Shown here: piece after piece, positions 1-64,000 of the stretch
Position numbering within the stretch: the stretch's first letter is position 1
Layout of the letters: every line of letters starts with the position of its first letter
Origin: Bacillota bacterium
GTDB lineage: Bacteria > Bacillota > Dethiobacteria > DTU022
Direction: 5' to 3'
Length of the DNA stretch: 64,000 bases
Assembly (NCBI GenBank): GCA_033549065.1
Contig: JAWSUE010000001.1
Coordinates: forward strand, 179,136-243,135
Made by a program: the position numbers and the translations under genes
Notes under the pieces: generated by a model
Told to the model about the DNA's origin: nothing
What the model saw: the letters and a program-made list of their open reading frames with translations, nothing else
The model's database searches: none

Positions 1-2130
1 TTGTTGAGCTAATACTGTTGTAGGAACTAGTACTGCTACCTGTTTTCCTTCCATAATAACTTTAAAAGCTGCACGCATAGCCACTTCCGTTTTTCCATAA
101 CCTACATCACCACAAATCAATCGATCCATAGGATGGCTCTTTTCCAGATCCAGCTTAACCTCTTGAATAGCACGCATTTGATCCTGTGTCTCATCATAAG
201 GAAAATACGACTCAAAATCCTGCTGCCACGGATGATCAGGACCGTACTGATAACCTTCAGTAGCTTCTCTGGCAGCATAGAGCGCCAGCAATTCACCCGC
301 CAGTTCTTCAACCGAACGGTGAACCCTGCTCTTCAATCGCTGCCATTCGCTGCCGCCTAAACTATGCAGCCGTGGCGGAGGTGCATCTCCTCCCGAATAT
401 TTTTGGATTAGCTGAACCTGTTCCACAGGGATGAAAAGCTTATCAGTTCCCCTGTATTTTAAATGAAGGTAATCACGTTTTACTCCGCTTATTTCCAAGG
501 TTTTTATCCCTTGGTACTTTCCTATACCATGCTGTTCGTGAACCACATAGTCACCAGGTTCAAGTTCACGATAATTACTTAAACGTATTCCCCCATAATC
601 GGCCGGTTTTCGCTTCTTTTTATGTCGGGGAAGCAAATGTTGGGTGGAAATAACTGCTAATTTTATACTGGAAATAAGAAAACCTTCGTCAAGATTTGCT
701 ACGCGTATCGGTAGTGGTTCTGTCAAATAGCTTTTTAAACCTTTACTCTCCTGCTCCGATGTTGCACAAATTATTACCTTAAATCCTTCTTTCTTAAAGG
801 TCTGGTAGTCGCTGTTAAAAAGCTGCCATTGCCCGTGATAATAGGGGATACTTTTACTTTCGATACAGTAATCCTCACTTGTTTGTAGTAAATTTTTCCC
901 CTCCGGAAATAATGAAAAACTTACCAGGGGACAGGATATATTGGTATAAAGCTCATTTTCTTTCAGAATAAAATCTCTTCCGGCAGCCAATTCCAGAAGT
1001 TCAATAATCTTGTTAACACTATGGTCATTGATCTCATTTCGTAATGTATTCCCTTTTTCAAAGAGGATTCCAGGTTCCTCTACTAAAACCAGGTAATCTG
1101 AGTCGATATAATCAAGCAGCGAAGAACCGTTTCCATAAAAGTAAGGGAAATAAATACTCAGCATATCCAGGCCATCAGGTTGCATTAACCGTTCCAGATG
1201 ACTTTCAACCTGTTGATTTAAAAAAGAAGCTGATTCATGATCTCCCCGCCTGCGAAGGTTGGCAGCCGCTTTGTCAAGTTTCAGGCGAATCTCTTTCTCG
1301 CCGGTTTCCTTTAGATCTCCTGAAATAATAAGTTCGCTGGCCGGTAGTATTAAAAGTTGATCTACATTTTTTGTTGAACGCTGGGTAAGGGGATCATAAT
1401 TCCTAATAGATTCAACCAGGTTATCATAAAGCGCTAGACGATGAGGGTGGTTTCGTCCGGTTGGATAAATATCTATGATATCGCCCCTTACGCTGAACTG
1501 ACCTCCTTTTTCTGCTAAAGTAACTCTTTCATAACCAAGATCAACCAATTGAGCAATCAGATTTTCCCGGTTGAGAGTGGAACCCGGTTTAACTTCTATT
1601 GCCAGGCTGTACCAAATCTCCGGAGGGATAACCCTGGTAAGCAGTGCCTGGTTTGTTGTTACATATACACCGGAGCCCCTGTTCCCAAGCCACTCGTAAA
1701 ATCCCATTCGCATTGCTGAATATTCTTCACTGCGAGATATTACTTCACTGCTTATGAATAACTCTCTGGAAGGTAATGATCTGACTTTGCCTGGTAAAAA
1801 TACAGATAAATCGGCATACATCTTTTCTGCACGGGCATTATCAGCAGTGATCACAATAGCAGGTTTTTCATTGTTTAATACCAATGCTGCCATGAAAAAT
1901 GCTCTTGCGCTACCATCAAGACCACTAACTGACAACCTGGTTTTGTTGTTATTAGTCAACTTAGTTATAATCTCATTGAAGAGTTCAAGGTCTCTCCATA
2001 ACCCTAATATGTCATTAAACAATAGAAAGTTCTCTCCGTTTCCTGCTGATATGAGTACAACAAAAGAAAGGGGATTTTTTATCCCCCAGGCAAGTGAATA
2101 AATTATATCTTTCGGGCCAGTTAGAGTCAA
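1..2130 (-). CDS. mfd: Transcription-repair coupling factor Mfd, partial (N-terminal ~700 aa; C-terminus runs off the window start). It is absent from the ORF track because no stop codon falls inside the window.
   Basis: My own minus-strand translation gives the N-terminal '...LSVSGLDGSARAFFMAALVLNNEKPAIVITADNARAEKM...' and, near nt 90-150, the helicase motif I 'LICGDVGYGKTEVAMRAAFKVIMEGKQVAVLVPTTVLAQQ'. It sits next to pth, as mfd does in Bacillus. The start is probably TTG at 2130, with an in-frame TAA at 2138-2140; the start is uncertain. Confidence 0.75.
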   Translation of the reverse strand, partial: MTLTGPKDIIYSLAWGIKNPLSFVVLISAGNGENFLLFNDILGLWRDLELFNEIITKLTNNNKTRLSVSGLDGSARAFFMAALVLNNEKPAIVITADNARAEKMYADLSVFLPGKVRSLPSRELFISSEVISRSEEYSAMRMGFYEWLGNRGSGVYVTTNQALLTRVIPPEIWYSLAIEVKPGSTLNRENLIAQLVDLGYERVTLAEKGGQFSVRGDIIDIYPTGRNHPHRLALYDNLVESIRNYDPLTQRSTKNVDQLLILPASELIISGDLKETGEKEIRLKLDKAAANLRRRGDHESASFLNQQVESHLERLMQPDGLDMLSIYFPYFYGNGSSLLDYIDSDYLVLVEEPGILFEKGNTLRNEINDHSVNKIIELLELAAGRDFILKENELYTNISCPLVSFSLFPEGKNLLQTSEDYCIESKSIPYYHGQWQLFNSDYQTFKKEGFKVIICATSEQESKGLKSYLTEPLPIRVANLDEGFLISSIKLAVISTQHLLPRHKKKRKPADYGGIRLSNYRELEPGDYVVHEQHGIGKYQGIKTLEISGVKRDYLHLKYRGTDKLFIPVEQVQLIQKYSGGDAPPPRLHSLGGSEWQRLKSRVHRSVEELAGELLALYAAREATEGYQYGPDHPWQQDFESYFPYDETQDQMRAIQEVKLDLEKSHPMDRLICGDVGYGKTEVAMRAAFKVIMEGKQVAVLVPTTVLAQQ

Positions 2131-2363
2131 CCAGGTTTAATGAACTCCAATATAACCAGCTTAACCATTCCTTTTTACGTCTGACATGTGACCTTTATAC
2201 GTCATTTCTATGCCCGCATTTTTAATCAAATATGTTGCTTAACACGCGCTATATGAGAGCTTTATAAAAATATTAAATTTCTTTTTATCCGGATCACCTT
2301 TGAAACTCGTGATTTATGCTAATCAGATTAAAAATATATTTTATAGTTTTCTGTCACAAATGT

Positions 2364-2379
2364 TGGCATGAAGATTGCT
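2364..2379 (+). promoter_or_regulatory. Sigma-54 (-24/-12) promoter TGGCAT-N5-TTGCT upstream of the FNT gene
   Basis: The sequence tGGCATgaagaTTGCt fits TGGCAC-N5-TTGCW with GG/GC spacing exactly right, about 65 nt upstream of ATG 2445. A sigma-54 activator is encoded 4 kb downstream. Confidence 0.6.
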
Positions 2380-2444
2380 TTATAGTAACTCAGAGGAACA
2401 GTAAATTTGCTTCTAAATATTATTAAAGAAAGGAGGCAGTAATA

Positions 2445-9844: not shown

Positions 9845-10150
9845 CATCAATATAAATAATAAATAAAAAATCCGCCCTTTAAGGGACGGATTAAAATCCG
9901 CGGTACCACCCAAATTGATGATTATCCACTCAATAAGTACGGGCATAAGATTTAATTCTGCCGATACCCTCTCCCTGTAACGGGGAAGAACCGTTAACAC
10001 CTACTTTGCCTTATGAATATCCGGTTTTCAGTGCAAAACTTCGAAGGGAACTTCAACAAGCAGTTTCCCGGCCGGATTTTCAGCCATTGATCCAACCTCT
10101 CTGGAGAGTTGCTATGCTTGCCTACTTTCCTTCTGCATTGTTTTTTAAAT
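9845..10150 (-). promoter_or_regulatory. T-box riboswitch leader (probably Phe-responsive) upstream of aroF-pheA
   Basis: Minus-strand T-box sequence AAUUUGGGUGGUACCGCGG (9898-9916) is followed by a terminator hairpin AAUCCGUCCC-UUAAA-GGGCGGAUUUUUU (9865-9896). The upstream stem-I-like region contains GAAGUUCCCUUCGAAG with UUC codons. Confidence 0.7.
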
Positions 10151-33660: not shown

Positions 33661-33930
33661 AGGCCGTGCACCTGCCTTTGACCGGCAACCCCAGGCGCCT
33701 TCCAGGCAGTTAGCTCCAACCCGGCGCTCCCGTGGCACCCGCAAATACTCACTTACCGCTGCTTCCTTCCGGACCTGACGGGGTTCATAAGCTTGCGCCG
33801 CACGGGACCAGGCCTTCGACACCACTTACCCGGTGCTGACCCTAAAGCTGCACGACCGGGGGCAGGAATTCAACCCCGCTATAGCGGATTGCGGGTTCAG
33901 GGCACCGCTACCTCCCCGTCTAGCACGGCC
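33661..33930 (-). ncRNA. ffs: Signal recognition particle RNA (long Bacillus-type scRNA)
   Basis: Domain IV motif GUCAGGUCCGGAAGGAAGCAGC. Terminal helix GGCCGUGC / GCACGGCC. Overall collinear with B. subtilis scRNA. Conserved position upstream of dnaX. Confidence 0.8.
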
Positions 33931-33943
33931 AAACCAAAAAAAT

Positions 33944-34039
33944 TGGCGGAGAGAGAGGGATTCGAACCCTCGAGACAGGGTTTTGCCCCATCTACTCGCT
34001 TTCCAGGCGAGCGCCTTCGACCAACTCAGCCATCTCTCC
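33944..34039 (-). tRNA. tRNA-Ser (anticodon GGA), long variable arm
   Basis: Minus-strand GGAGAGAUGGCUGAGUUGG...CUCGCCUGGAAAGCGAG...GGUUCGAAUCCCUCUCUCUCCGCCA. CCA is encoded. Confidence 0.8.
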
Positions 34040-53333: not shown

Positions 53334-54290
53334 ATGAAAAACATCTCTATTTGCCTGTTACTGATATTATCAATATTTCTTTTCACAACATCGTGTACTG
53401 AAACAGACAGTCAACTTCCCGAAGTTTCCCCGGAAGAAGTTGCGGATAATGATGAAGCAGTAGACTTTGACAACAGCCAGGTAGAAGAACCGGAATTTAC
53501 ATTCCCCGAACCGAGTGCAGTAGAAAACAACTATCATTTAGAAGAGGCTTTCCCTGGTCTATTTTTTACACGACCGCTGGATCTACAGAATGCAGGTGAT
53601 GGAAGCGGTCGCTTATTCGTGGTAGAACAGGCAGGGATGATCTATGTTGTTGAAGGCCCGGCTTACTCCGAAAAAGAGGTTTTTCTGGATATCCGTGACC
53701 TGGTTGATGACAGTGGCAATGAAATGGGTCTTCTTGGTCTTGCTTTTCACCCCCAATATATAGAAAATGGTTATTTTTATATAAACTATACCGACAGATC
53801 AGGTACGGTAATAGCCAGATTTAATGCTTCCGGTAATATCGCAGAACCAGCCAGTAGAAAAACTATTATGAGTTTCAGCCAACCATACCGAAACCACAAC
53901 GGAGGTCAGTTATCCTTCGGCCCGGATGGTTATCTCTATATTTCTACCGGTGATGGAGGAAGTGGGGGAGATCCCCAGGGACATGGCCAAAACCTTCAGA
54001 CCATTCATGGCAATATCCTGCGGATTGATGTTAACAGTGAAAGATCTGAAGATAATTATACAATACCTCCCGACAATCCTTTTACAAACAGTGATGAGGG
54101 TGCCCTCGAAGAAATATACGCTTACGGATTGCGTAATCCATGGCGCTTCAGCTTTGATCCGATGACCGGGAATCTCTGGGCAGCAGATGTTGGCCAGAAT
54201 AGAGTTGAAGAGATAAACATAATTGATGAAGACCTAAAGATCTATTTGACAGCATTTGACGGAAAAGTTTACAGGCTAAAAAAGAATTAG
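53334..54290 (+). CDS. PQQ-dependent sugar (glucose/sorbosone) dehydrogenase-like lipoprotein, apparently C-terminally truncated
   Basis: Lipobox 'TTSC'. Beta-propeller motifs 'LGLAFHP' and 'NHNGGQLSFGPDGYLYISTGDGG'. Only ~250 aa of propeller where about 330+ are expected. Ends 27 nt before tRNA-Arg. Confidence 0.55.
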   Translation: MKNISICLLLILSIFLFTTSCTETDSQLPEVSPEEVADNDEAVDFDNSQVEEPEFTFPEPSAVENNYHLEEAFPGLFFTRPLDLQNAGDGSGRLFVVEQAGMIYVVEGPAYSEKEVFLDIRDLVDDSGNEMGLLGLAFHPQYIENGYFYINYTDRSGTVIARFNASGNIAEPASRKTIMSFSQPYRNHNGGQLSFGPDGYLYISTGDGGSGGDPQGHGQNLQTIHGNILRIDVNSERSEDNYTIPPDNPFTNSDEGALEEIYAYGLRNPWRFSFDPMTGNLWAADVGQNRVEEINIIDEDLKIYLTAFDGKVYRLKKN

Positions 54291-54317: not shown

Positions 54318-54395
54318 TGGTGCGCCCGGCAGGATTTGAACCTGCGACCTGCTGATTCGAAGTCAGTCACTCTATCCGGGCTGAGCTACGGGCGC
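54318..54395 (-). tRNA. tRNA-Arg (anticodon UCG)
   Basis: Minus strand GCGCCCGUAGCUCAGCCCGGAUAGAGU...CUUCGAA...GGUUCAAAUCCUGCCGGGCGCACCA. Confidence 0.75.
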
Positions 54396-56468: not shown

Positions 56469-57098
56469 TCAACTTAAAGGTTTGCAAATGTACCAGGAAG
56501 CTCTTTTATCTACATGGATTACTTTTACCTCGGAAAAACAGTTCTTCATCTCTGTAACACAATCTCGCATCTCTGGTTCAGCATGCTTAATAAAATGGAA
56601 GTAATCGCCGCCTTCCAGCCATTCAATGACTGTTACTGGCAAAGATCTTTTATCGTTATAGTCATATATTACAACCCAGTGTTCGGCGACGCGACTCATT
56701 TCAGCATACATCTTTCTTCGTTCCTCAGACTTCAATCCATGGGCCACATAAGAAGCAACAGCAATATCAAAACTTTTATCCTCTACAGGCAATGTTTCCA
56801 AAACGTCGGCCTGAATAAAATTAATGTTGATATTTTCCGGTTTAGCCATGGCTATATCGAGCATTTTCTTTGCCGGATCAATTCCGGTCACAGTCAAACC
56901 CATTTCATACAGGACTGAACATAACGCACCTGTTCCACAGCCAATGTCAATAATTGTTCTGAAGGATGCTATATCCAGATCTTTCTCTACCCCCTTCAGA
57001 ACCTCGGAATATCGCTTTTTCTGTATATTATAAAATAATCCATAGGCGGGTGCTATCAAATTAAATAAGAAAGTACTATTGCTTTTAGCCAATTGCAT
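56469..57098 (-). CDS. Class I SAM-dependent methyltransferase
   Basis: Motif I 'IIDIGCGTGAL'. Confidence 0.75.
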   Translation of the reverse strand: MQLAKSNSTFLFNLIAPAYGLFYNIQKKRYSEVLKGVEKDLDIASFRTIIDIGCGTGALCSVLYEMGLTVTGIDPAKKMLDIAMAKPENININFIQADVLETLPVEDKSFDIAVASYVAHGLKSEERRKMYAEMSRVAEHWVVIYDYNDKRSLPVTVIEWLEGGDYFHFIKHAEPEMRDCVTEMKNCFSEVKVIHVDKRASWYICKPLS

Positions 57099-57197
57099 AC
57101 ACCTCTTATAATAATCTTAACAATTTATGCAGAATCAAGCCAGTAGGCGCTGTTGTTGGATAGAGTTTCGAATGTTCACTTTCAGAAACCATTATTT

Positions 57198-57279
57198 TGG
57201 TGCGCCCGACAGTTAATACCTCTGACCTATCGATTTGTAATCCTGAATGAGAACATGGCTAATAGACTTCTGCGCACTC
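57198..57279 (-). repeat. tRNA-Arg-like degenerate remnant (copy A of a tRNA-derived repeat)
   Basis: It ends with the identical 11-nt tRNA-Arg 3' terminus CGGGCGCACCA and shares AGGUC-GAGGU with the intact tRNA-Arg, but it does not fold as a tRNA. Its 5' ~38 nt recur at 60071-60109. Confidence 0.45.
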
Positions 57280-57401
57280 TTTTTATTAATATTTAGTTAA
57301 TTATTCTAGCCCATGTCTGCTTGCTTTACAAGCAGGGTAGAAATAAAAGTAGCTTATTAAAATGTAAATATCTGTAGCGGTGTGATCCTTTTCATGAGGA
57401 G

Positions 57402-59951
57402 GTGCTTCCATTGGTTGAAAAGAAAGCTTTCCAGGTACCTATTGATGTAAAGAGTGATCAAATAAATAGAAAAAAAATCCCACGCAGGAAAAAACACCGT
57501 GTGATAATGATAATTATTCTGATCTTTTTCCTATCATTTTTGATCACCGGTGGCGCTGCTGCAACAGTGGTAGTCAGCTATATTAATGAGGCTCCGTACA
57601 TCGATCACTCACTATTAGAAACCCCGGAAACTTCATATCTTTACGATATCAATGGCGAAGAGATTACCCGGTTACATGGCGACCAGAACCGTATTACGGT
57701 TAAACTGGAAGAAGTACCTGAACATGTTCTACAGGCATTTATCGCTATTGAAGATGAGCGCTTCTATCAACATTTCGGTTTTGACATCATCGGTAGCATC
57801 AGGGCTGCCTACATCAATCTAAAAGCCGGATCCATTGTGCAAGGTGCAAGTACCATATCTCAACAGCTGGCTCAAAATGCTTTTTTAACTACTGAAACCA
57901 GCTATAAACGTAAAATTCAGGAGATCTGGCTGGCTATTCAGCTAGAGAAAGTTTACAGTAAAGAAGAGATCATGGAGCTTTACATAAACCGGATCTACTT
58001 TGGCAACACAGCCTATGGGATCGAGGCTGCCGCTCAAACTTATTTCGGAAAGAGTGTTATGGAATTAAACATAGCGGAGTCGGCAATGCTGGCCGGCGCA
58101 GTGCGATCGCCAAATTACTACAACCCTATCGATAACAAAGCTGCCGCTGAAGAACGTATGCGTAGTGTTTTGGTCAATATGGTCAGGCTTGGTTTTATTT
58201 CAGAATCTCTGTATGGACGAATAATTGAACAAGGACTCAATTATACAGAGTCAGATAGCGCCAATTACCCATATCCCTACTTTGTCGATTATGTTGTTCA
58301 TAACGAGTTGATAAAGATTCTGACTACAATACCTTCAATCGGAACCCGTGAGGAAGCTTACAAGACTATATATAATGGCGGCTTACATGTCTATACCACC
58401 CTGGATCCACTAATTCAAAGCCATGTGGAAAACGTTTTGGAGCAGACCGTTCTTTACCCTACAACAATCTATGTCGATATTGCAAAGGCAAGGGAAGCAA
58501 TATCCAAACTGCTTCCGGACGAGGAACTGTCAAGCAGCCAGTTAGAGGAACTTATAAATGAAGAAAACGGCATACCACAGCCCCAGTCAGCAGTAGTCGT
58601 TGCTGATCCAGGTACCGGTCAAATAAAAGCTCTGGGCGGGGGGCGTGAATACAGCAAGGGTACAAACGAGGTACTACGCTTTATCAGCCTACGCCAACCC
58701 GGTTCTGCAATTAAGCCGATTATCACTTACAGCCCTGCCTTCGAGGAGGGAATCCTGGCCGGAGCCAGCTCAACTCTGGATGATTCTCCTTATATCGGTC
58801 CACGGGGGGACTGGTTTCCGGAAAATTTTGACTACCAGTTCCGTGGAATGATCCCGGTCAGAAAGGCTTTGATCTATTCATATAATTTACCGGCGGTTCG
58901 CGCTTTCGAAGCGCTTGGCACCCGAACCGGCGCAGCATACGCAGAAAAGATGGGTATTTCAACCATAACCCCGGAAGAGATAGACAACTTAAGCCTGACC
59001 CTTGGAGGCTTTCATATAGGAGTCAGCACTGTTGCTATGGCCCAGGCTTACGGAGTCCTGGCTAACCAGGGGTTAAAAGTTGACCTGCACACTGTTGAAA
59101 AAATTATAGACCGGCAGGGAAATATAATATATGAATTTAAACCTGAGCCGGAAAAGATTTTAAGCCCTCAAACTGCATTCCTGATCAACGACATCCTGCA
59201 GGAATTCGTGACCGATTATCTCGGCCGGGAGCTGCGAATCGATCGACAGATTGCCGCCAAAACCGGCACTACTAATGATTGGAGAGATGTTTATCTTGTT
59301 GCTTATACACCCAACCTGGTTACCTCTTTCTGGATGGGTTATGATGAGCCGAGGATAGGCAGAATTGAACAGGGTTGGCGATACTCAACCAGATTTTTAC
59401 GTGAAGTTTTTTTGGAAGTTTTTAAAACACTGGAAATAAAGGAATTCGAACAACCGGACGGGATCGTCAAAATGTCGGTCTGCAATAAATCAGGGTTGAA
59501 GCCAAATAGTGACTGCAATGCAGCCGGAACCATAATCCGCGATTACTTCATAGCCAACCTGGCGCCCACAGCAACCTGCAATATGCATGAAAACGGTTAT
59601 TATAATCGTCCACCATATATTACAACAGATCAACGTTGGTCAGGTAAAGGCGGACCTGGAAGAGGGCCCAAAGATGCCATAGAAATGCTTTCCGAGGAAG
59701 ATGCCATGGCGAACACTGGCTTTTTTGTCCAACAAACTACAGGGCTTGCCCAAGTGCCTGATGTACGAGGGGAAAATCTACAAATTGCTGAGACACAGAT
59801 CAATCGGGCAAACCTAAGAGTGGGTAATATTGAAAAGCAATATAGCACTGAAGTTTCTGCTAACCGTGTGATCCGGCAATCGCCCAAACCCGGAACAATA
59901 GTGAACAGGGATAGTAAAGTTCACCTGATCGTTTCTAAAGGCCCTCAGTAA
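57402..59951 (+). CDS. Class A penicillin-binding protein (PBP1A: transglycosylase + transpeptidase + C-terminal PASTA)
   Basis: GT51 motifs 'EDERFYQH' and 'GASTISQQLA'. TP 'SAIKP' and 'KTGTT'. The start could instead be the TTG at 57411, 10 nt after the GAGGAGG RBS. Confidence 0.9.
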   Translation: MLPLVEKKAFQVPIDVKSDQINRKKIPRRKKHRVIMIIILIFFLSFLITGGAAATVVVSYINEAPYIDHSLLETPETSYLYDINGEEITRLHGDQNRITVKLEEVPEHVLQAFIAIEDERFYQHFGFDIIGSIRAAYINLKAGSIVQGASTISQQLAQNAFLTTETSYKRKIQEIWLAIQLEKVYSKEEIMELYINRIYFGNTAYGIEAAAQTYFGKSVMELNIAESAMLAGAVRSPNYYNPIDNKAAAEERMRSVLVNMVRLGFISESLYGRIIEQGLNYTESDSANYPYPYFVDYVVHNELIKILTTIPSIGTREEAYKTIYNGGLHVYTTLDPLIQSHVENVLEQTVLYPTTIYVDIAKAREAISKLLPDEELSSSQLEELINEENGIPQPQSAVVVADPGTGQIKALGGGREYSKGTNEVLRFISLRQPGSAIKPIITYSPAFEEGILAGASSTLDDSPYIGPRGDWFPENFDYQFRGMIPVRKALIYSYNLPAVRAFEALGTRTGAAYAEKMGISTITPEEIDNLSLTLGGFHIGVSTVAMAQAYGVLANQGLKVDLHTVEKIIDRQGNIIYEFKPEPEKILSPQTAFLINDILQEFVTDYLGRELRIDRQIAAKTGTTNDWRDVYLVAYTPNLVTSFWMGYDEPRIGRIEQGWRYSTRFLREVFLEVFKTLEIKEFEQPDGIVKMSVCNKSGLKPNSDCNAAGTIIRDYFIANLAPTATCNMHENGYYNRPPYITTDQRWSGKGGPGRGPKDAIEMLSEEDAMANTGFFVQQTTGLAQVPDVRGENLQIAETQINRANLRVGNIEKQYSTEVSANRVIRQSPKPGTIVNRDSKVHLIVSKGPQ

Positions 59952-60070
59952 CTGACATACTATATATTACCACAAAATAATAGCCTTAGCTTTAACAACA
60001 TCGCCATTCAGACATAAATTATGTAGTAACGCATGATCACTCAAACATTTAAAAATCTTTCTTACTACTA

Positions 60071-60109
60071 CCTAATGACGGGAACTGTGCTTATAGACTT
60101 CTGCGCAGC
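60071..60109 (-). repeat. Copy B of the tRNA-derived repeat (5' portion only)
   Basis: About 30/38 identical to 57242-57279, including the core TAGACTTCTGCGCA. Same orientation. Confidence 0.45.
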
Positions 60110-60263
60110 TAACAGAATATCATTTAAAAAGAAGATTATGTATTCAATAAGTGAAATATCCGTGATACCTCGCTGCTGTGGTTAGTAATCAGCCCTGGAT
60201 AAGGGTTGATCCGATCACTATCAAAAACGACTGCTGATGAGTTAAATAGTATTAATAAAAGGA

Positions 60264-60638
60264 GTGTTATCTATGTCAATCAAGGGTTATTTTGAAAATC
60301 TTAGATATGAACGGGAAAAACAACAAAGAAAAGAAAGCGCAATTAAGATTCTGTCCGGGTTGGCAATTGGAGCTCTGATCGGCGGAGTTGTAGGTGTCCT
60401 CTATGCACCAAAGGCCGGCAAAGAGACAAGGCATGAAATTGCCGAAAAGGTCAAAGAAACTGCCGCTGCCACCAGGGAGAAAGTAAAAGAGACAGTTAAG
60501 GAAGTAAAAGAAAAAGTAGATGACCTGAAAGACAAAAGGGTAGCCGTTGTTGATAAAACAACCGATTCCAAAAACGCAGTTAAGGAATCGGGAGAAGTAT
60601 TAACAGCTGCCAAGAGAGATGGCAAGAATAAGATTTAA
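60264..60638 (+). CDS. YtxH-like membrane-anchored protein
   Basis: TM 'GLAIGALIGGVVGVLYAPKAGKETR' followed by a Lys/Glu-rich helix. Confidence 0.6.
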   Translation: MLSMSIKGYFENLRYEREKQQRKESAIKILSGLAIGALIGGVVGVLYAPKAGKETRHEIAEKVKETAAATREKVKETVKEVKEKVDDLKDKRVAVVDKTTDSKNAVKESGEVLTAAKRDGKNKI

Positions 60639-60667
60639 TAATCATCTAGATAAATATATACAGGTAG

Positions 60668-61132
60668 GTGGATGAGAAAATGAATGTCAATTTAACTTTA
60701 TATGACCTAGGCCTACTCATATTATTTGTGTTGGTGGTGGTGGCGGTGATTTATTTTATTATCATCGCCAGAAAGTTTAATGACCTGATCGGAAAAGTGC
60801 ATAAGACTTTAGAAACAAATGAAGTTAATATCAATAAAACGCTTGCTATATTGCCCGAAATGCTTGAAAAAACTGATGACATCGCATCCAATATGCAGTT
60901 AGGCGCCCGGGAGTTTGGAACCTCAGCTCCAACTATTTTACATAATTTCAGCGCTATGTCTGACTCGTTAAAAGATAGCGCTAATCTGGTCGTTAGCTCG
61001 GTGGATCTGATTGGGACAGGAATCAGTGAAACGGTCTACAACGTAAAAAATAGGTCAGGTGATGTAGTCAGCTACATCAAGACCATCATGGATGCTTTGC
61101 ACTATCTGGTTAACTATTTAACGACCAAATAA
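60668..61132 (+). CDS. DUF948-like membrane-anchored coiled-coil protein
   Basis: N-terminal TM plus a helical domain. Pairs with ytxH as in Bacillus ytxG/ytxH; family assignment is from memory. Confidence 0.45.
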   Translation: MDEKMNVNLTLYDLGLLILFVLVVVAVIYFIIIARKFNDLIGKVHKTLETNEVNINKTLAILPEMLEKTDDIASNMQLGAREFGTSAPTILHNFSAMSDSLKDSANLVVSSVDLIGTGISETVYNVKNRSGDVVSYIKTIMDALHYLVNYLTTK

Positions 61133-61765
61133 ACTGAATTACCTGTAGAGAAGAGGCCTGTCACTATCCGTCATAACGTCATAAAAGGATGAGATATGCA
61201 TGGATACATTGGAGAAAGACTATGAGGCGGGGTTTTAGAAAAATGTAATCCCCCCTGCCTATCGCTATATCAGCCAACTCACGGGCACTATCCGGATAAT
61301 AAACGCAACCCGATCAACTACCAGAACCTAACGAAAGTGCTGAAGGCGATACTGCCGCGGAATTTTACAAGAAACGAGGCCCAGCGCTACTTTGCCCCAT
61401 TTTTTACCCTGGCTGAAAACCGCGATTATTGAAACCACACCATCTACGGTCTGGCAATGCTCGGCTTAAGGGATTTCTCCCGAGGCTACAGGCTTCAAAA
61501 AACGGTTGCCGAGATGGCTATCGTGGCTGATAGTTTCTACATCAAACCGCTGAGACGTATCCTTCAGATAGTTGACCGATACTATATCCTCGGCCTTAAT
61601 CGCCATGGGATAAGGCTCTTTGCCTGACAAGCAAAAAGAAGCTTCAGACAAACTTCAAGTCATAAGTTTTGGCAATGTACAACAAGGAATTTAAATTCCA
61701 CACACAATACGCACATTAAAAGGGTCTTAGGATTTATTGTTAACCCTACGACCCTTATTTTATCG

Positions 61766-61806
61766 TGGTGCGCCCGGCAGGATTTGAACCTGCGATCTCC
61801 TGATTT
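61766..61806 (-). repeat. Orphan 3' fragment (~40 nt) of a tRNA-Arg gene
   Basis: Identical over 30 nt to the 3' end of tRNA-Arg at 54318-54347 (UCGCAGGUUCAAAUCCUGCCGGGCGCACCA), then diverges. No 5' half is present. Confidence 0.6.
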
Positions 61807-61893
61807 TGTTATTAAATATTTAACGCATAATTAAATCTTAGCGATACCTCAGAGACTCTCTGATTCAGTTAGCTAATGTTGATATCGCTCAGC

Positions 61894-62322
61894 CTAATAT
61901 GAGTATATCTTTTTACCGCTTACTATAGGTATGTTATTATTCTTAAGCGTTTTAAGGGCATCGGCAATCTTTTCCACACGTATCATGATAATTGCATTGT
62001 GGGCCGGCTTATCAATAAAAGAGTAAAGATACTCAATATTAATACCAGCATCGTTTAAGCATGCTAAAATACCTGCCAGCCCTCCCGGTTTGTCCGGTAC
62101 CTCGACTGCAATCACTTCGGTTACAGTGGCCATAATCCCATATTCTTTCAATGTACTTAAAGCCTTCTCAGGCTGGTTCACTATTAACCTCAAAATGCCA
62201 AAGTCAGATGTATCTGCAATTGATAACCCACGTATGTTTATTTTTGCCTCTTCAAGTACCTTTGAAACTTTAACCAGTCGACCTGATTTATTTTCTAAAA
62301 AGATAGATATCTGCTTAATCAT
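61894..62322 (-). CDS. Tandem ACT-domain protein
   Basis: Two ACT-like repeats 'ISIFLENKSGRL' and 'IAVEVPDKPGGL'. Partner of the phenylacetate-CoA ligase family gene. Confidence 0.6.
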   Translation of the reverse strand: MIKQISIFLENKSGRLVKVSKVLEEAKINIRGLSIADTSDFGILRLIVNQPEKALSTLKEYGIMATVTEVIAVEVPDKPGGLAGILACLNDAGINIEYLYSFIDKPAHNAIIMIRVEKIADALKTLKNNNIPIVSGKKIYSY

Positions 62323-62337
62323 CCTCTAATCTCTCCC

Positions 62338-63636
62338 TTACTTAAGTAAACGTTTATCAATTACGCGCTGGGCTTTACCTTCGCTGCGGGGAATATTTTT
62401 TGGTTCAACGAGTTTTACATCTGCTGAAACACCCAGCATATTTTCTATCTCCACATGTATTTTATTTTCAAGAGATTCAAGCCCTCGTATATAATCCGAA
62501 AACATTTGCTCAGATACTTCAACTAATACCTGTAGCGTATCGAGTGAGCCAACCCTGTCTACAACCAATTGATAGTGTGGTTCAGTTTCACCCATCTCTA
62601 AAAGAATACTTTCTATTTGAGATGGAAATACATTAACTCCGCGAATGATAAGCATGTCATCACTACGACCACTGACTTTTGTCATCCTGCTATGAGTCCT
62701 TCCACAGGAACATAGCTTACTGTTCAAGTTTGTAATATCGCGAGTCCGGTAACGAATCATCGGCAATGCTTCCTTACTGATAGTAGTAATGACAAGTTCC
62801 CCGGTAGCCCCTTCCGGTAAAACTTCACCTGTAGAAGGATCGATAATTTCAGGGATAAAATGATCTTCGCTTAGATGTAACCCACTTTTTGCAATACATT
62901 CATAGGATACACCGGGTCCAATTATCTCACTTAAGCCATAAATATCAAAGGCATCAATTTGCAATTTTTCCTCAATTACCCGACGCATATTTTCTGACCA
63001 TGGTTCAGCGCCAAAAACACCTGAACTCAATTTTAGATCACTCGGTTTAAGATCCATTTCAGCAATTGTTTCAGCTATAAATAACGCATAGGATGGTGTG
63101 CAGGCGAGCAGAGTTGTTCCAAGATCCTTCATCATCTTAACCTGCCGTTTCGTTTGCCCACCTGAAATAGGAACCACCGTAGCCCCAATCTTTTCTGCTC
63201 CATAGTGGACGCCAAGTCCTCCGGTAAAGAGACCATACCCATAAGCAATGTGTACCACCGATTCGCTGGTTGCGCCTCCGGCAGTAAGAGTGCGGGCCAT
63301 CAATTCAGCCCATGTTTCAAGATCGTTTCTAGTGTACCCAACTACCGTGGGTATTCCTGTTGTTCCTGAGGAAGAGTGAATACGTACCACTTCGTTTAAA
63401 TCAACTGTAAAAAGGCCATAAGGAAAATTATCTCTCAGGTCGTCTTTAACTGTAAAGGGAAGTTTTTTTAGATCTTCCAGGGAACGAATGTCCCCTGGCT
63501 CAACACCTGCTGTTTGGAAACTTTTTCTATAATAGGGAACCAACTGATAAACTCTTTCTATTGTCTGTTTTAACCTCAGAAATTGTAAAACCTGCAACTT
63601 CTCGCGATCCATTTCTTCGTATTTACGGTTCCACAT
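62338..63636 (-). CDS. paaK: Phenylacetate-CoA ligase family adenylate-forming enzyme
   Basis: '[10 protein letters not shown]' AMP-binding P-loop. 432 aa, PaaK-like. Confidence 0.75.
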
Positions 63637-63708
63637 TTACTGTTTTTCCTCCAATCTCGAGATACCAATTCAGAAATTATATTGAAGAGCTTGTCGGCTG
63701 TCATAAAA

Positions 63709-64000
63709 TCATTTTAGAAGGTTTGGCAAAAACAACGCAATAGCAGGGAACTGGGTTAATATTGCTATACATAAGATAATAGCTAAGAGATAAAACCCAA
63801 CGCCCCGAAAGATTTCCATTACCGGTGTTGATCGATCGACACCGGCAACAACATATACATTAGCCCCTACTGGTGGTGTTATCACTCCCATTCCCAAGGC
63901 TAAAACAATAATCACCCCGAACCATATAGGATCAAAGCCGAGCGAGACAGCAACCGGAAAAAATATTGGTACGGTTAATAAAATAAGAGCCAAAGCATCT
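63709..64000 (-). CDS. TRAP transporter large permease (DctM-like), C-terminal fragment; the gene continues beyond the window end
   Basis: 'ITPPVGANVYVVAGV' is a typical DctM C-terminus. Confidence 0.6.
   Translation of the reverse strand, partial: DALALILLTVPIFFPVAVSLGFDPIWFGVIIVLALGMGVITPPVGANVYVVAGVDRSTPVMEIFRGVGFYLLAIILCIAILTQFPAIALFLPNLLK

Follow-up and report, generated by a model that had tools for sequence, protein, structure and literature searches.

We analysed a stretch of 64,000 nucleotides (nt) from a Bacillota genome (contig JAWSUE010000001.1), called the window below, and in particular the segment at 57198-57279, which lies upstream of a gene for a PBP1A-type class A penicillin-binding protein (PBP). 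A first-pass annotation had described this segment as a single element of about 80 nt derived from tRNA-Arg, the 5' 38 nt of which return downstream of the gene. Our analysis showed that the segment is a composite, in which two unrelated and ordinary features meet at 57244/57245. On the one hand, the part at 57186..57244 on the minus strand, which we call psi1, reads as a decayed attachment-type (att) repeat that extends from the anticodon loop of a tRNA-Arg(ACG) gene to CCA and about 12 nt of flank. On the other hand, the part at 57245..57299 on the plus strand is the R1 box, a predicted promoter of the PBP1A gene (nhmmer profile E-value 2.3e-11). Two further features complete the picture. 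A well-preserved att repeat, frag3, lies at 61766..61805 on the minus strand and corresponds to the 3' 40 nt of tRNA-Arg from the anticodon loop, and a second box, R2, lies at 60075..60129 on the plus strand (nhmmer E-value 6.8e-12) as the predicted promoter of a ytxH-DUF948 operon. Our overall account, that integration scars of tRNA-Arg(ACG) and R promoter boxes are two independent features of this locus, has in our estimate a probability of about 0.75.

The order of the features in the window is DctM, PaaK and ACT genes, frag3, a baeRF remnant, DUF948, ytxH and PBP1A, psi1, a group of methyltransferase, deacetylase and FGE genes and, finally, tRNA-Arg(TCG). Accordingly, psi1 at the distal end and frag3 at the proximal end bracket a block of 4.5 kilobases (kb) that contains PBP1A, ytxH, DUF948 and the truncated baeRF gene. 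The PBP1A gene (57411..59951, plus strand) carries a PASTA domain in addition to its Transgly and Transpeptidase domains (Pfam); its open reading frame (ORF) opens with GTG at 57402, and the likely start is TTG at 57411, after a GAGGAGG ribosome-binding site. It is followed on the same strand by ytxH (60273-60638; Pfam YtxH), by a DUF948-like gene (60668-61132; weak Pfam DUF948 match) and by the remnant of a baeRF-family gene (61178..61627), which we recognised by comparison with an intact gene of a related genome (locus L090). At the nucleotide level, the remnant is about 78% identical to the first third of that 402-residue gene, and it has an in-frame stop; the baeRF domain (residues 151-331 in L090) is missing from it, and it ends next to the hairpin of frag3. 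As the gene is truncated and interrupted by a stop, the block seems to have been trimmed by deletion, which would leave a scar at its proximal end. The hairpin itself (61710..61765, minus strand) directly follows frag3 and is terminator-like (minimum free energy -18.3 kcal/mol, z -4.25, 0/200 shuffles). The ACT, PaaK and DctM genes (61894..64000, minus strand; Pfam) form the next block up the array; frag3, which forms a pair with the decayed repeat at 57198, lies 88 nt beyond ACT. At the other end, the intact tRNA-Arg(TCG) gene (54318..54395, minus strand; ARAGORN; Rfam tRNA 67.3 bits) is one of only three tRNA genes that ARAGORN found in the window, and a strong hairpin lies 3' of it.

The tRNA-like half of the segment shares an exact run with this gene. 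The plus-strand sequence TGGTGCGCCCG is the complement of the CGGGCGCACCA end of the tRNA and has exactly three copies in the window, all in the same orientation, at 54318, 57198 and 61766. We could therefore confirm the 11-nt identity between the segment (57198-57208) and tRNA-Arg (54318-54328) that the first-pass annotation had reported, together with the AGGTC..AGGT segment common to both, while the third exact copy, at 61766, was absent from that annotation. The chance probability of about 0.03 that it had attached to the match is valid only for one preselected 11-mer; by our own arithmetic, if any 11-mer of one tRNA may count, about 2 matches should arise by chance in 128 kb (both strands). 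It had also stated correctly that the segment cannot fold as a tRNA. ARAGORN found no tRNA at 57198-57279 or 61766-61850, Rfam returned no match for the 57198-57279 stretch at E<=10, tRNA model included, and the fold of this stretch was no better than that of shuffled sequence (z -0.25). With no Rfam family and a fold like that of shuffled sequence, the suggested regulatory RNA structure was not borne out. In the wider region (56900-62000), Rfam at E<=10 gave only chance-level matches of the snoRNA type and the tRNA piece of frag3, and the folds of both strands were unremarkable for both R copies.

Aligned with the 3' 40 nt of tRNA-Arg(TCG), psi1 is identical at 29 of 40 positions, including the exact 11-nt terminal run. 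A better match is the 3' part, with flank, of a tRNA-Arg(ACG) gene from the metagenome-assembled genome (MAG) S22.Bin020 (GCA_011389985.1), a relative from which this 70-nt query was taken independently. Here psi1 scored 24, above all 300 shuffles (maximum 22), and was the best match in the window outside the two clear copies. The aligned part includes about 12 nt past CCA and matches the parent at the A of the ACG anticodon as well as over AAAATAA in the flank. The homology to the tRNA ends at about 57244, at the start of R1. We ruled out a full-length decayed tRNA pseudogene, a candidate in view of a length of 78 nt like that of the tRNA and a GCGC start, on the grounds that the 5' half is homologous to R boxes without tRNA context. 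A pairing of the plus strand with tRNA-Arg, of the kind seen in T-boxes or primer-binding sites, was also rejected: it had no Rfam support, and the segment lies upstream of the predicted transcription start site of PBP1A.

The second repeat is much clearer. frag3 is 38/40 identical to tRNA-Arg(TCG) of the window (nhmmer E-value 4.7e-7), and the Rfam tRNA model gave it 18 bits, under the gathering score of 29. Both psi1 and frag3 are located upstream, in the tRNA sense, of the intact tRNA-Arg(TCG). This gene and the parent of the repeats have the 3' half in common, but the variable loop of tRNA-Arg(TCG) is GCAG, whereas the repeats have GGAG. A classic integration into the neighbouring tRNA-Arg(TCG) was rejected accordingly, considering that the fragments are on the wrong side and that the GGAG variable loop and the ACG loop belong to another gene. 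We also dismissed the idea that frag3 comes from a tRNA that is split or has a group I intron in its anticodon loop, since neither the window nor the relative shows a 5' exon upstream. Between the ACT gene and frag3 (61806-61893, minus strand) we noticed the sequence ACTGA-ATCAG, which resembles the anticodon stem of a tRNA without its loop, and an inverted repeat, AGCGATA..TATCGCT; this interval has about 60% identity to the matching flank of the relative and may be a second, older tRNA remnant or a chance resemblance.

Because psi1 and frag3 are on the wrong side of tRNA-Arg(TCG) for a classic integration, relatives were examined for the parent gene. The closest relative found is S22.Bin020, the ACT protein of which is 88% identical to that of the window; the PaaK-ACT DNA shows 88.6% nucleotide identity (blastn over 2112 nt). 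Homologues of ACT at 75% identity have another gene context and no tRNA. S22.Bin020 contains three tRNA-Arg 3' fragments (a, b and c) in one orientation, of which a and c share the same 53 nt, with the anticodon loop CTACGAA (anticodon ACG) and the GGAG variable loop. From these two loops, we predicted an intact tRNA-Arg(ACG) upstream of the array in S22.Bin020, and such a gene was indeed found there after contig extension. The order (L104, 1888-13359) is two tRNA-Ser genes and tRNA-Arg(ACG); DcuC and an amidohydrolase; repeat a; two small genes; repeat b; DctPQM-PaaK-ACT; and repeat c. Repeats a and c equal the intact tRNA-Arg(ACG) exactly, from CTACGAA through 8 nt past CCA. The repeats are 45-53 nt long and the blocks of S22.Bin020 1.4-5.3 kb. 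Repeat c directly follows ACT, in the same place as frag3, which is 39/40 identical to this ACG-type repeat and also has the GGAG variable loop, whereas the flanks show only about 60% identity. The hairpin flank of frag3 resembles the flank of repeat b. Of the six copies examined, five have a strong hairpin behind them, namely frag3 and the intact tRNA-Arg(TCG) in the window and all three repeats of S22.Bin020. The block after PaaK-ACT differs between the genomes, being baeRF'-ytxH-PBP1A in the window vs PALP'-PDT-DAHPS in S22.Bin020. Judged by these sequences, psi1 and frag3 descend from a tRNA-Arg(ACG) gene and not from the neighbouring tRNA-Arg(TCG).

These observations suggest how the array may have formed. 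A tRNA-Arg(ACG) gene would be a hotspot for site-specific integration in this lineage, and each integration would copy the segment of the tRNA from the anticodon loop to just past CCA. Successive integrations would then give a one-directional array of the intact tRNA, a block, a repeat, a block and a repeat, of which the window would hold the distal part. As new blocks would be inserted next to the intact tRNA, an older, distal repeat should decay more; psi1, which is farther from the intact tRNA and would be older, is indeed more decayed than frag3. The integrase would have been lost from the blocks, which would be decayed or at best cis-mobilizable, and the repeats would be scars or at most sites for a recombinase acting in trans. 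A tandem scar array at a tRNA hotspot is of a known kind. Tandem islands at ssrA in Dehalococcoides include cis-mobilizable blocks without an integrase, which are perhaps mobile only with their neighbours (PMC3146451), and integration often leaves behind tRNA fragments of the attR type (PMC9897764). In addition, two IMG/VR viral contigs (L084 and L086) carry the last 34 nt or so of this tRNA 3' end without the body of the tRNA, and a third (L089) ends at it. The first-pass proposal of decayed att sites thus holds for the tRNA-like half but not for the 38-nt repeat, which is homologous to boxes that have no tRNA nearby. Likewise, tRNA-Arg repeats do bracket PBP1A as it had claimed, but the pair is 57198-57244 with 61766-61805, not 57241-57279 with 60071-60109.

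Several results weigh against an origin of the repeats by integration. Pfam found no integrase among all genes of the window between 48 and 64 kb, nor in the precomputed Pfam lists over 31 kb of the S22.Bin020 contig; since no integrase was seen, it is the anatomy of the repeats and precedent that connect them to site-specific recombination. The parent tRNA-Arg(ACG) of the window's own genome, if there is one, is not within the 64 kb, and the upstream end of the array is past position 64000. For psi1 in particular, the statistics with the window's own tRNA are marginal: the score of 17 against the 3' 40 nt of tRNA(TCG) was reached in 17/400 Markov shuffles (p about 0.04), and nhmmer gave E-values of 0.8-1.8. 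There is also no hairpin after psi1, unlike after the other tRNA 3' copies. These points, with the absence of an orthologous psi1 copy among the relatives searched, would suit an accidental resemblance of 57198-57244 to a tRNA, in which case only frag3 and the R boxes would be real. We consider this improbable, as psi1 beats 300 of 300 shuffles when the independently obtained parent and flank are used, is the top non-self match in the window, fits this parent in the anticodon (A of ACG) and in the flank (AAAATAA), and is oriented like the array at a boundary of gene blocks. The similarity to tRNA-Arg claimed in the first pass is marginal for tRNA-Arg(TCG) and stands for the ACG parent.

The repeats may also be read in other ways. 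Together with their hairpins, they could be live sites of a cassette array without its own integrase, served by a recombinase in trans. Hints of this are that frag3 is near-perfect while its flanks have diverged, that repeats a and c are identical, and that the flanks are permuted between genomes, with one flank common to frag3 and repeat b. Small blocks of the chromosomal type could then be shuffled among soda-lake Bacillota, one of them with a class A PBP and a stress-type promoter. We regard live sites as rather unlikely. A role in the host, with repeats and hairpins kept by selection as terminator or insulator modules or as tRNA-like processing signals at operon ends, would also explain why frag3 matches its counterpart at 39/40 positions between flanks of about 60% identity, and would agree with the strong hairpins. 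However, an identity to the intact tRNA that includes 8 nt past CCA is expected from att duplication or repeated recombination, the fragments have no 5' acceptor strand and hence no tRNA-like fold, and the decay of psi1 has been tolerated; a host function kept by selection thus seems distinctly improbable. The first-pass reading itself, of one tRNA-Arg element of about 80 nt with 57241-57279 and 60071-60109 as decayed att or SINE-like (short interspersed nuclear element) copies, has on its side that the two halves are adjacent, that the repeat is real, and that the 5' end starts with GCGC like a tRNA and can pair with the 3' end. Considering that the tRNA homology stops at about 57244, that the fold resembles that of shuffled sequence, and that boxes homologous to the 38-nt unit occur in other genomes without a tRNA fragment nearby, always facing a gene at a fixed -10 distance, we judge it very improbable. 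What stood of the single element is that 57186-57244 is tRNA-derived, from an ACG gene; the 5' 38 nt are a promoter-type box whose functional strand is the opposite one. Integration scars thus remain our preferred explanation for psi1 and frag3.

The other half of the segment belongs to a different kind of feature. The 14-mer TAGACTTCTGCGCA has exactly two copies in the window, at 57263 and 60094 on the plus strand, and the match extends to 22/26 identity. The 14-mer consists of the -35-like hexamer and the first 8 nt of the spacer. In R1, the core GCTAATAG starts at 57258, the -35-like TAGACT is at 57263-57268 and the -10 hexamer TAATAT at 57287-57292, 119 nt from the TTG start of PBP1A. In R2, TAGACT is at 60094-60099 and the -10 hexamer TATCAT at 60118-60123. 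The recurrence downstream of PBP1A in the same orientation was accordingly confirmed, but its distance from the stop codon (59951) is about 120 nt, not the 50 nt given in the first pass. In the stretch between R1 and PBP1A, we also observed a 7-bp hairpin without a U-run (CTGCTTG-CTTTA-CAAGCAG; 57317-57336, plus strand) in the predicted PBP1A leader, between the -10 hexamer and the start. On the other strand, a promoter-like TTGTAA-17-TAGAAT lies at 57331-57303; if used, it would give a transcript through the complement of R1 and psi1 into the methyltransferase-deacetylase-FGE-tRNA-Arg(TCG) genes.

R1 and R2 belong to a family of boxes. We count at least 16 credible copies in related soda-lake Bacillota, with profile E-values of 1e-11 to 1e-14; part of them came from metagenome contigs, which were screened with a degenerate pattern and then with the profile. 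The 16 copies align without indels to the consensus aaTG.GAAc.TTGCTAATAGatTTCTaaGCAc-N9-TAnnAT, in short form TTGCTAATAG..TTCT..GCA-N10-TAnnAT. In the -10 hexamer, T45, A46 and T50 never vary, and 15/16 copies have A49. All 16 are intergenic and face an ORF that begins 23-168 nt after the -10 hexamer. The genes after the boxes encode YtxH (twice), CsbD, class A PBPs (in the window and in L094), GT4, desulfoferrodoxin, sulfur oxygenase reductase and small membrane proteins. Four of the seven metagenome pattern matches (L092, L093, L095 and L096) were discarded, as they look like chance, with no -10 hexamer or a position in coding or foreign sequence. A dispersed repeat of the SINE or MITE (miniature inverted-repeat transposable element) type, one of the first-pass suggestions, does not fit two R copies in 64 kb and a family of which all 16 members face genes at a fixed -10 spacing.

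Some of these homologues were found near PBP1A genes of other organisms. The best relatives of PBP1A, with 76-77% amino-acid identity, come from soda-lake MAGs of Syntrophomonadaceae/Bacillota. The 80 PBP1A loci taken from species genomes had neither a tRNA-Arg nor the 80-nt unit, and the genes that flank the window's PBP1A are syntenic in none of them; three of the loci (L003, L004 and L072) revealed an R box. There, the R homologue follows the PBP1A gene at a distance of about 130 nt, has the orientation of that gene and precedes a tiny membrane ORF, and none of the three has a tRNA fragment nearby. In L072, another copy precedes a GT4 glycosyltransferase gene. The metagenome contigs added copies in L090, L091 and L094, that of L090 including an R2 orthologue before ytxH. 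All boxes of the window and L090 have the variant CTGCGCA, and other lineages have CTAAGCA. Such lineage-specific variants would be the pattern expected from co-evolution with a trans-acting factor or from concerted evolution. A literature search for the motif string returned only unrelated primers.

Because of the fixed -10 distance, the orientation to the downstream gene and the homologues without tRNA, we read R1 and R2 as promoters of PBP1A and ytxH-DUF948, respectively. Homology, orientation, spacing and downstream genes are the observed properties of the boxes, from which we infer a regulator and transcription starts, predicted near 57299 and 60130 on the plus strand. Judging by the motif, the boxes are most likely promoters of the housekeeping sigma factor, with a good -10 hexamer that is sometimes TG-extended and a weak -35 hexamer (TAGAcT, 18-nt spacer), and the near-invariant TTGCTAATAG...GCA block is probably the binding site of a regulator. 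In this case, PBP1A and ytxH-DUF948 would share their control with the genes for CsbD, desulfoferrodoxin and small membrane proteins; such a group of genes looks like a general-stress or envelope regulon. When we compared the box by hand with known sites (sigma-B, sigma-54, RpoE-type, MerR-type, CIRCE, LexA, Fur/PerR, Rex and CodY), none gave a convincing fit.

Some observations weigh against a housekeeping promoter. The promoter scan flagged R2 as TAGACT-18-TATCAT, but R1 (TAGACT-18-TAATAT) was one match under the threshold; TAGACT is only a 4/6 match to the -35 hexamer at 18-nt spacing in both boxes, and TAGCTT or TAGATT elsewhere reach 2-3/6. In L094, CCGT occurs 16 nt after GCTAAT in several boxes, and a gene for an extracytoplasmic function (ECF) sigma factor is beside one box. 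The boxes might accordingly be promoters of an ECF-like or stress sigma factor, for example with TTGCTAAT as the -35 element and CGT, 16 nt downstream, as the -10 element. CsbD, YtxH, small membrane proteins and PBPs do resemble stress and envelope regulons under sigma control, the CCGT at ECF spacing is present in 4/6 L094 boxes, and the sigma gene there follows a gene driven by R. However, CGT is absent from both boxes of the window and from most copies, while TAnnAT is essentially invariant in the 16. Moreover, no homologue of the L094 sigma factor was found in the window or the other loci, and the spacings, compared by hand, fit no sigma-B, sigma-54 or RpoE-type consensus. An alternative sigma factor is therefore unlikely, although it deserves consideration next to the housekeeping promoters that we favour. 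As to L094 itself, at 847-2402 (minus strand) an R box precedes a gene for a lipoprotein-like protein of 209 residues, which is followed by the ECF sigma gene, and six R boxes lie within 12 kb; this sigma factor is a possible candidate for the cognate factor of the box in that lineage.

The genomic setting also bears on the role of PBP1A. Its relatives have two or three class A PBPs each, and, as the gene lies in a variable block of a tRNA-Arg(ACG) hotspot, the PBP1A of the window is probably an accessory paralogue. Apart from these features, the gene for a glucose/sorbosone dehydrogenase at 53334-54290 (plus strand), the end of which is 28 nt from tRNA-Arg(TCG), matches only positions 2-213 of the 332-position Pfam profile, and the last 20 residues of its product resemble the C-terminus of the family, which suggests an internal deletion or a short variant. 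A T-box leader (9879-10147, minus strand; 102 bits), a large-type signal recognition particle RNA (33664-33928, minus strand; 209 bits) and tRNA-Ser genes at 33944 and 39999 are ordinary Bacillota features.

Taken together, both components of the segment are of known kinds, and the case is a cautionary one, in which two short, unrelated features that abut mimic one exotic element. The repeat after PBP1A that the first-pass annotation had paired with this element is the predicted promoter of the next operon. The R box itself is a new and modestly interesting regulatory motif. In the form TTGCTAATAG..GCA-N10-TAnnAT, it connects class A PBPs to ytxH, csbD, desulfoferrodoxin and several small membrane proteins of an alkaliphilic lineage that is uncultured, and might represent a previously undescribed stress and envelope regulon.

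In comparison with known systems, the plus strand at 57198-57208 is the exact complement of the tRNA-Arg acceptor end, as in T-box and primer-binding-site systems, but the segment differs from these by matching no Rfam family at E<=10, by having no cloverleaf and by lying upstream of the predicted PBP1A transcription start site. The R boxes are comparable to Bacillota regulon promoters, such as those of csbD and ytxH under sigma-B or the operator-controlled promoters of sigma-A. They differ in that, by hand comparison, they do not match the sigma-B consensus GTTTAA-N12-15-GGGTAT or the sigma-54 or RpoE-type consensus and spacing. Like those promoters, they have a conserved block at a fixed distance from the -10 hexamer, stand before several unlinked genes of a common theme (CsbD, YtxH, membrane proteins and PBPs), and show a variant of their own in each lineage across all copies. 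The repeats, in turn, are closest to the tandem islands at tRNA genes and transfer-messenger RNA genes (PMC3146451, PMC9897764). What distinguishes the present array is that the five blocks examined in the window and S22.Bin020 have no integration module, that the blocks are of 1.4-5.3 kb with genes of the chromosomal type (TRAP transporter, PaaK and class A PBP), and that the intact parent tRNA of the window's genome is not among the 64 kb. In both cases, on the other hand, the repeat is the 3' part of the gene, from a loop to just past the 3' end; all repeats point the same way and come after a single intact gene, as S22.Bin020 shows; the blocks vary between genomes, some being without integration genes; and a conserved base sets the repeats apart from a related intact gene.

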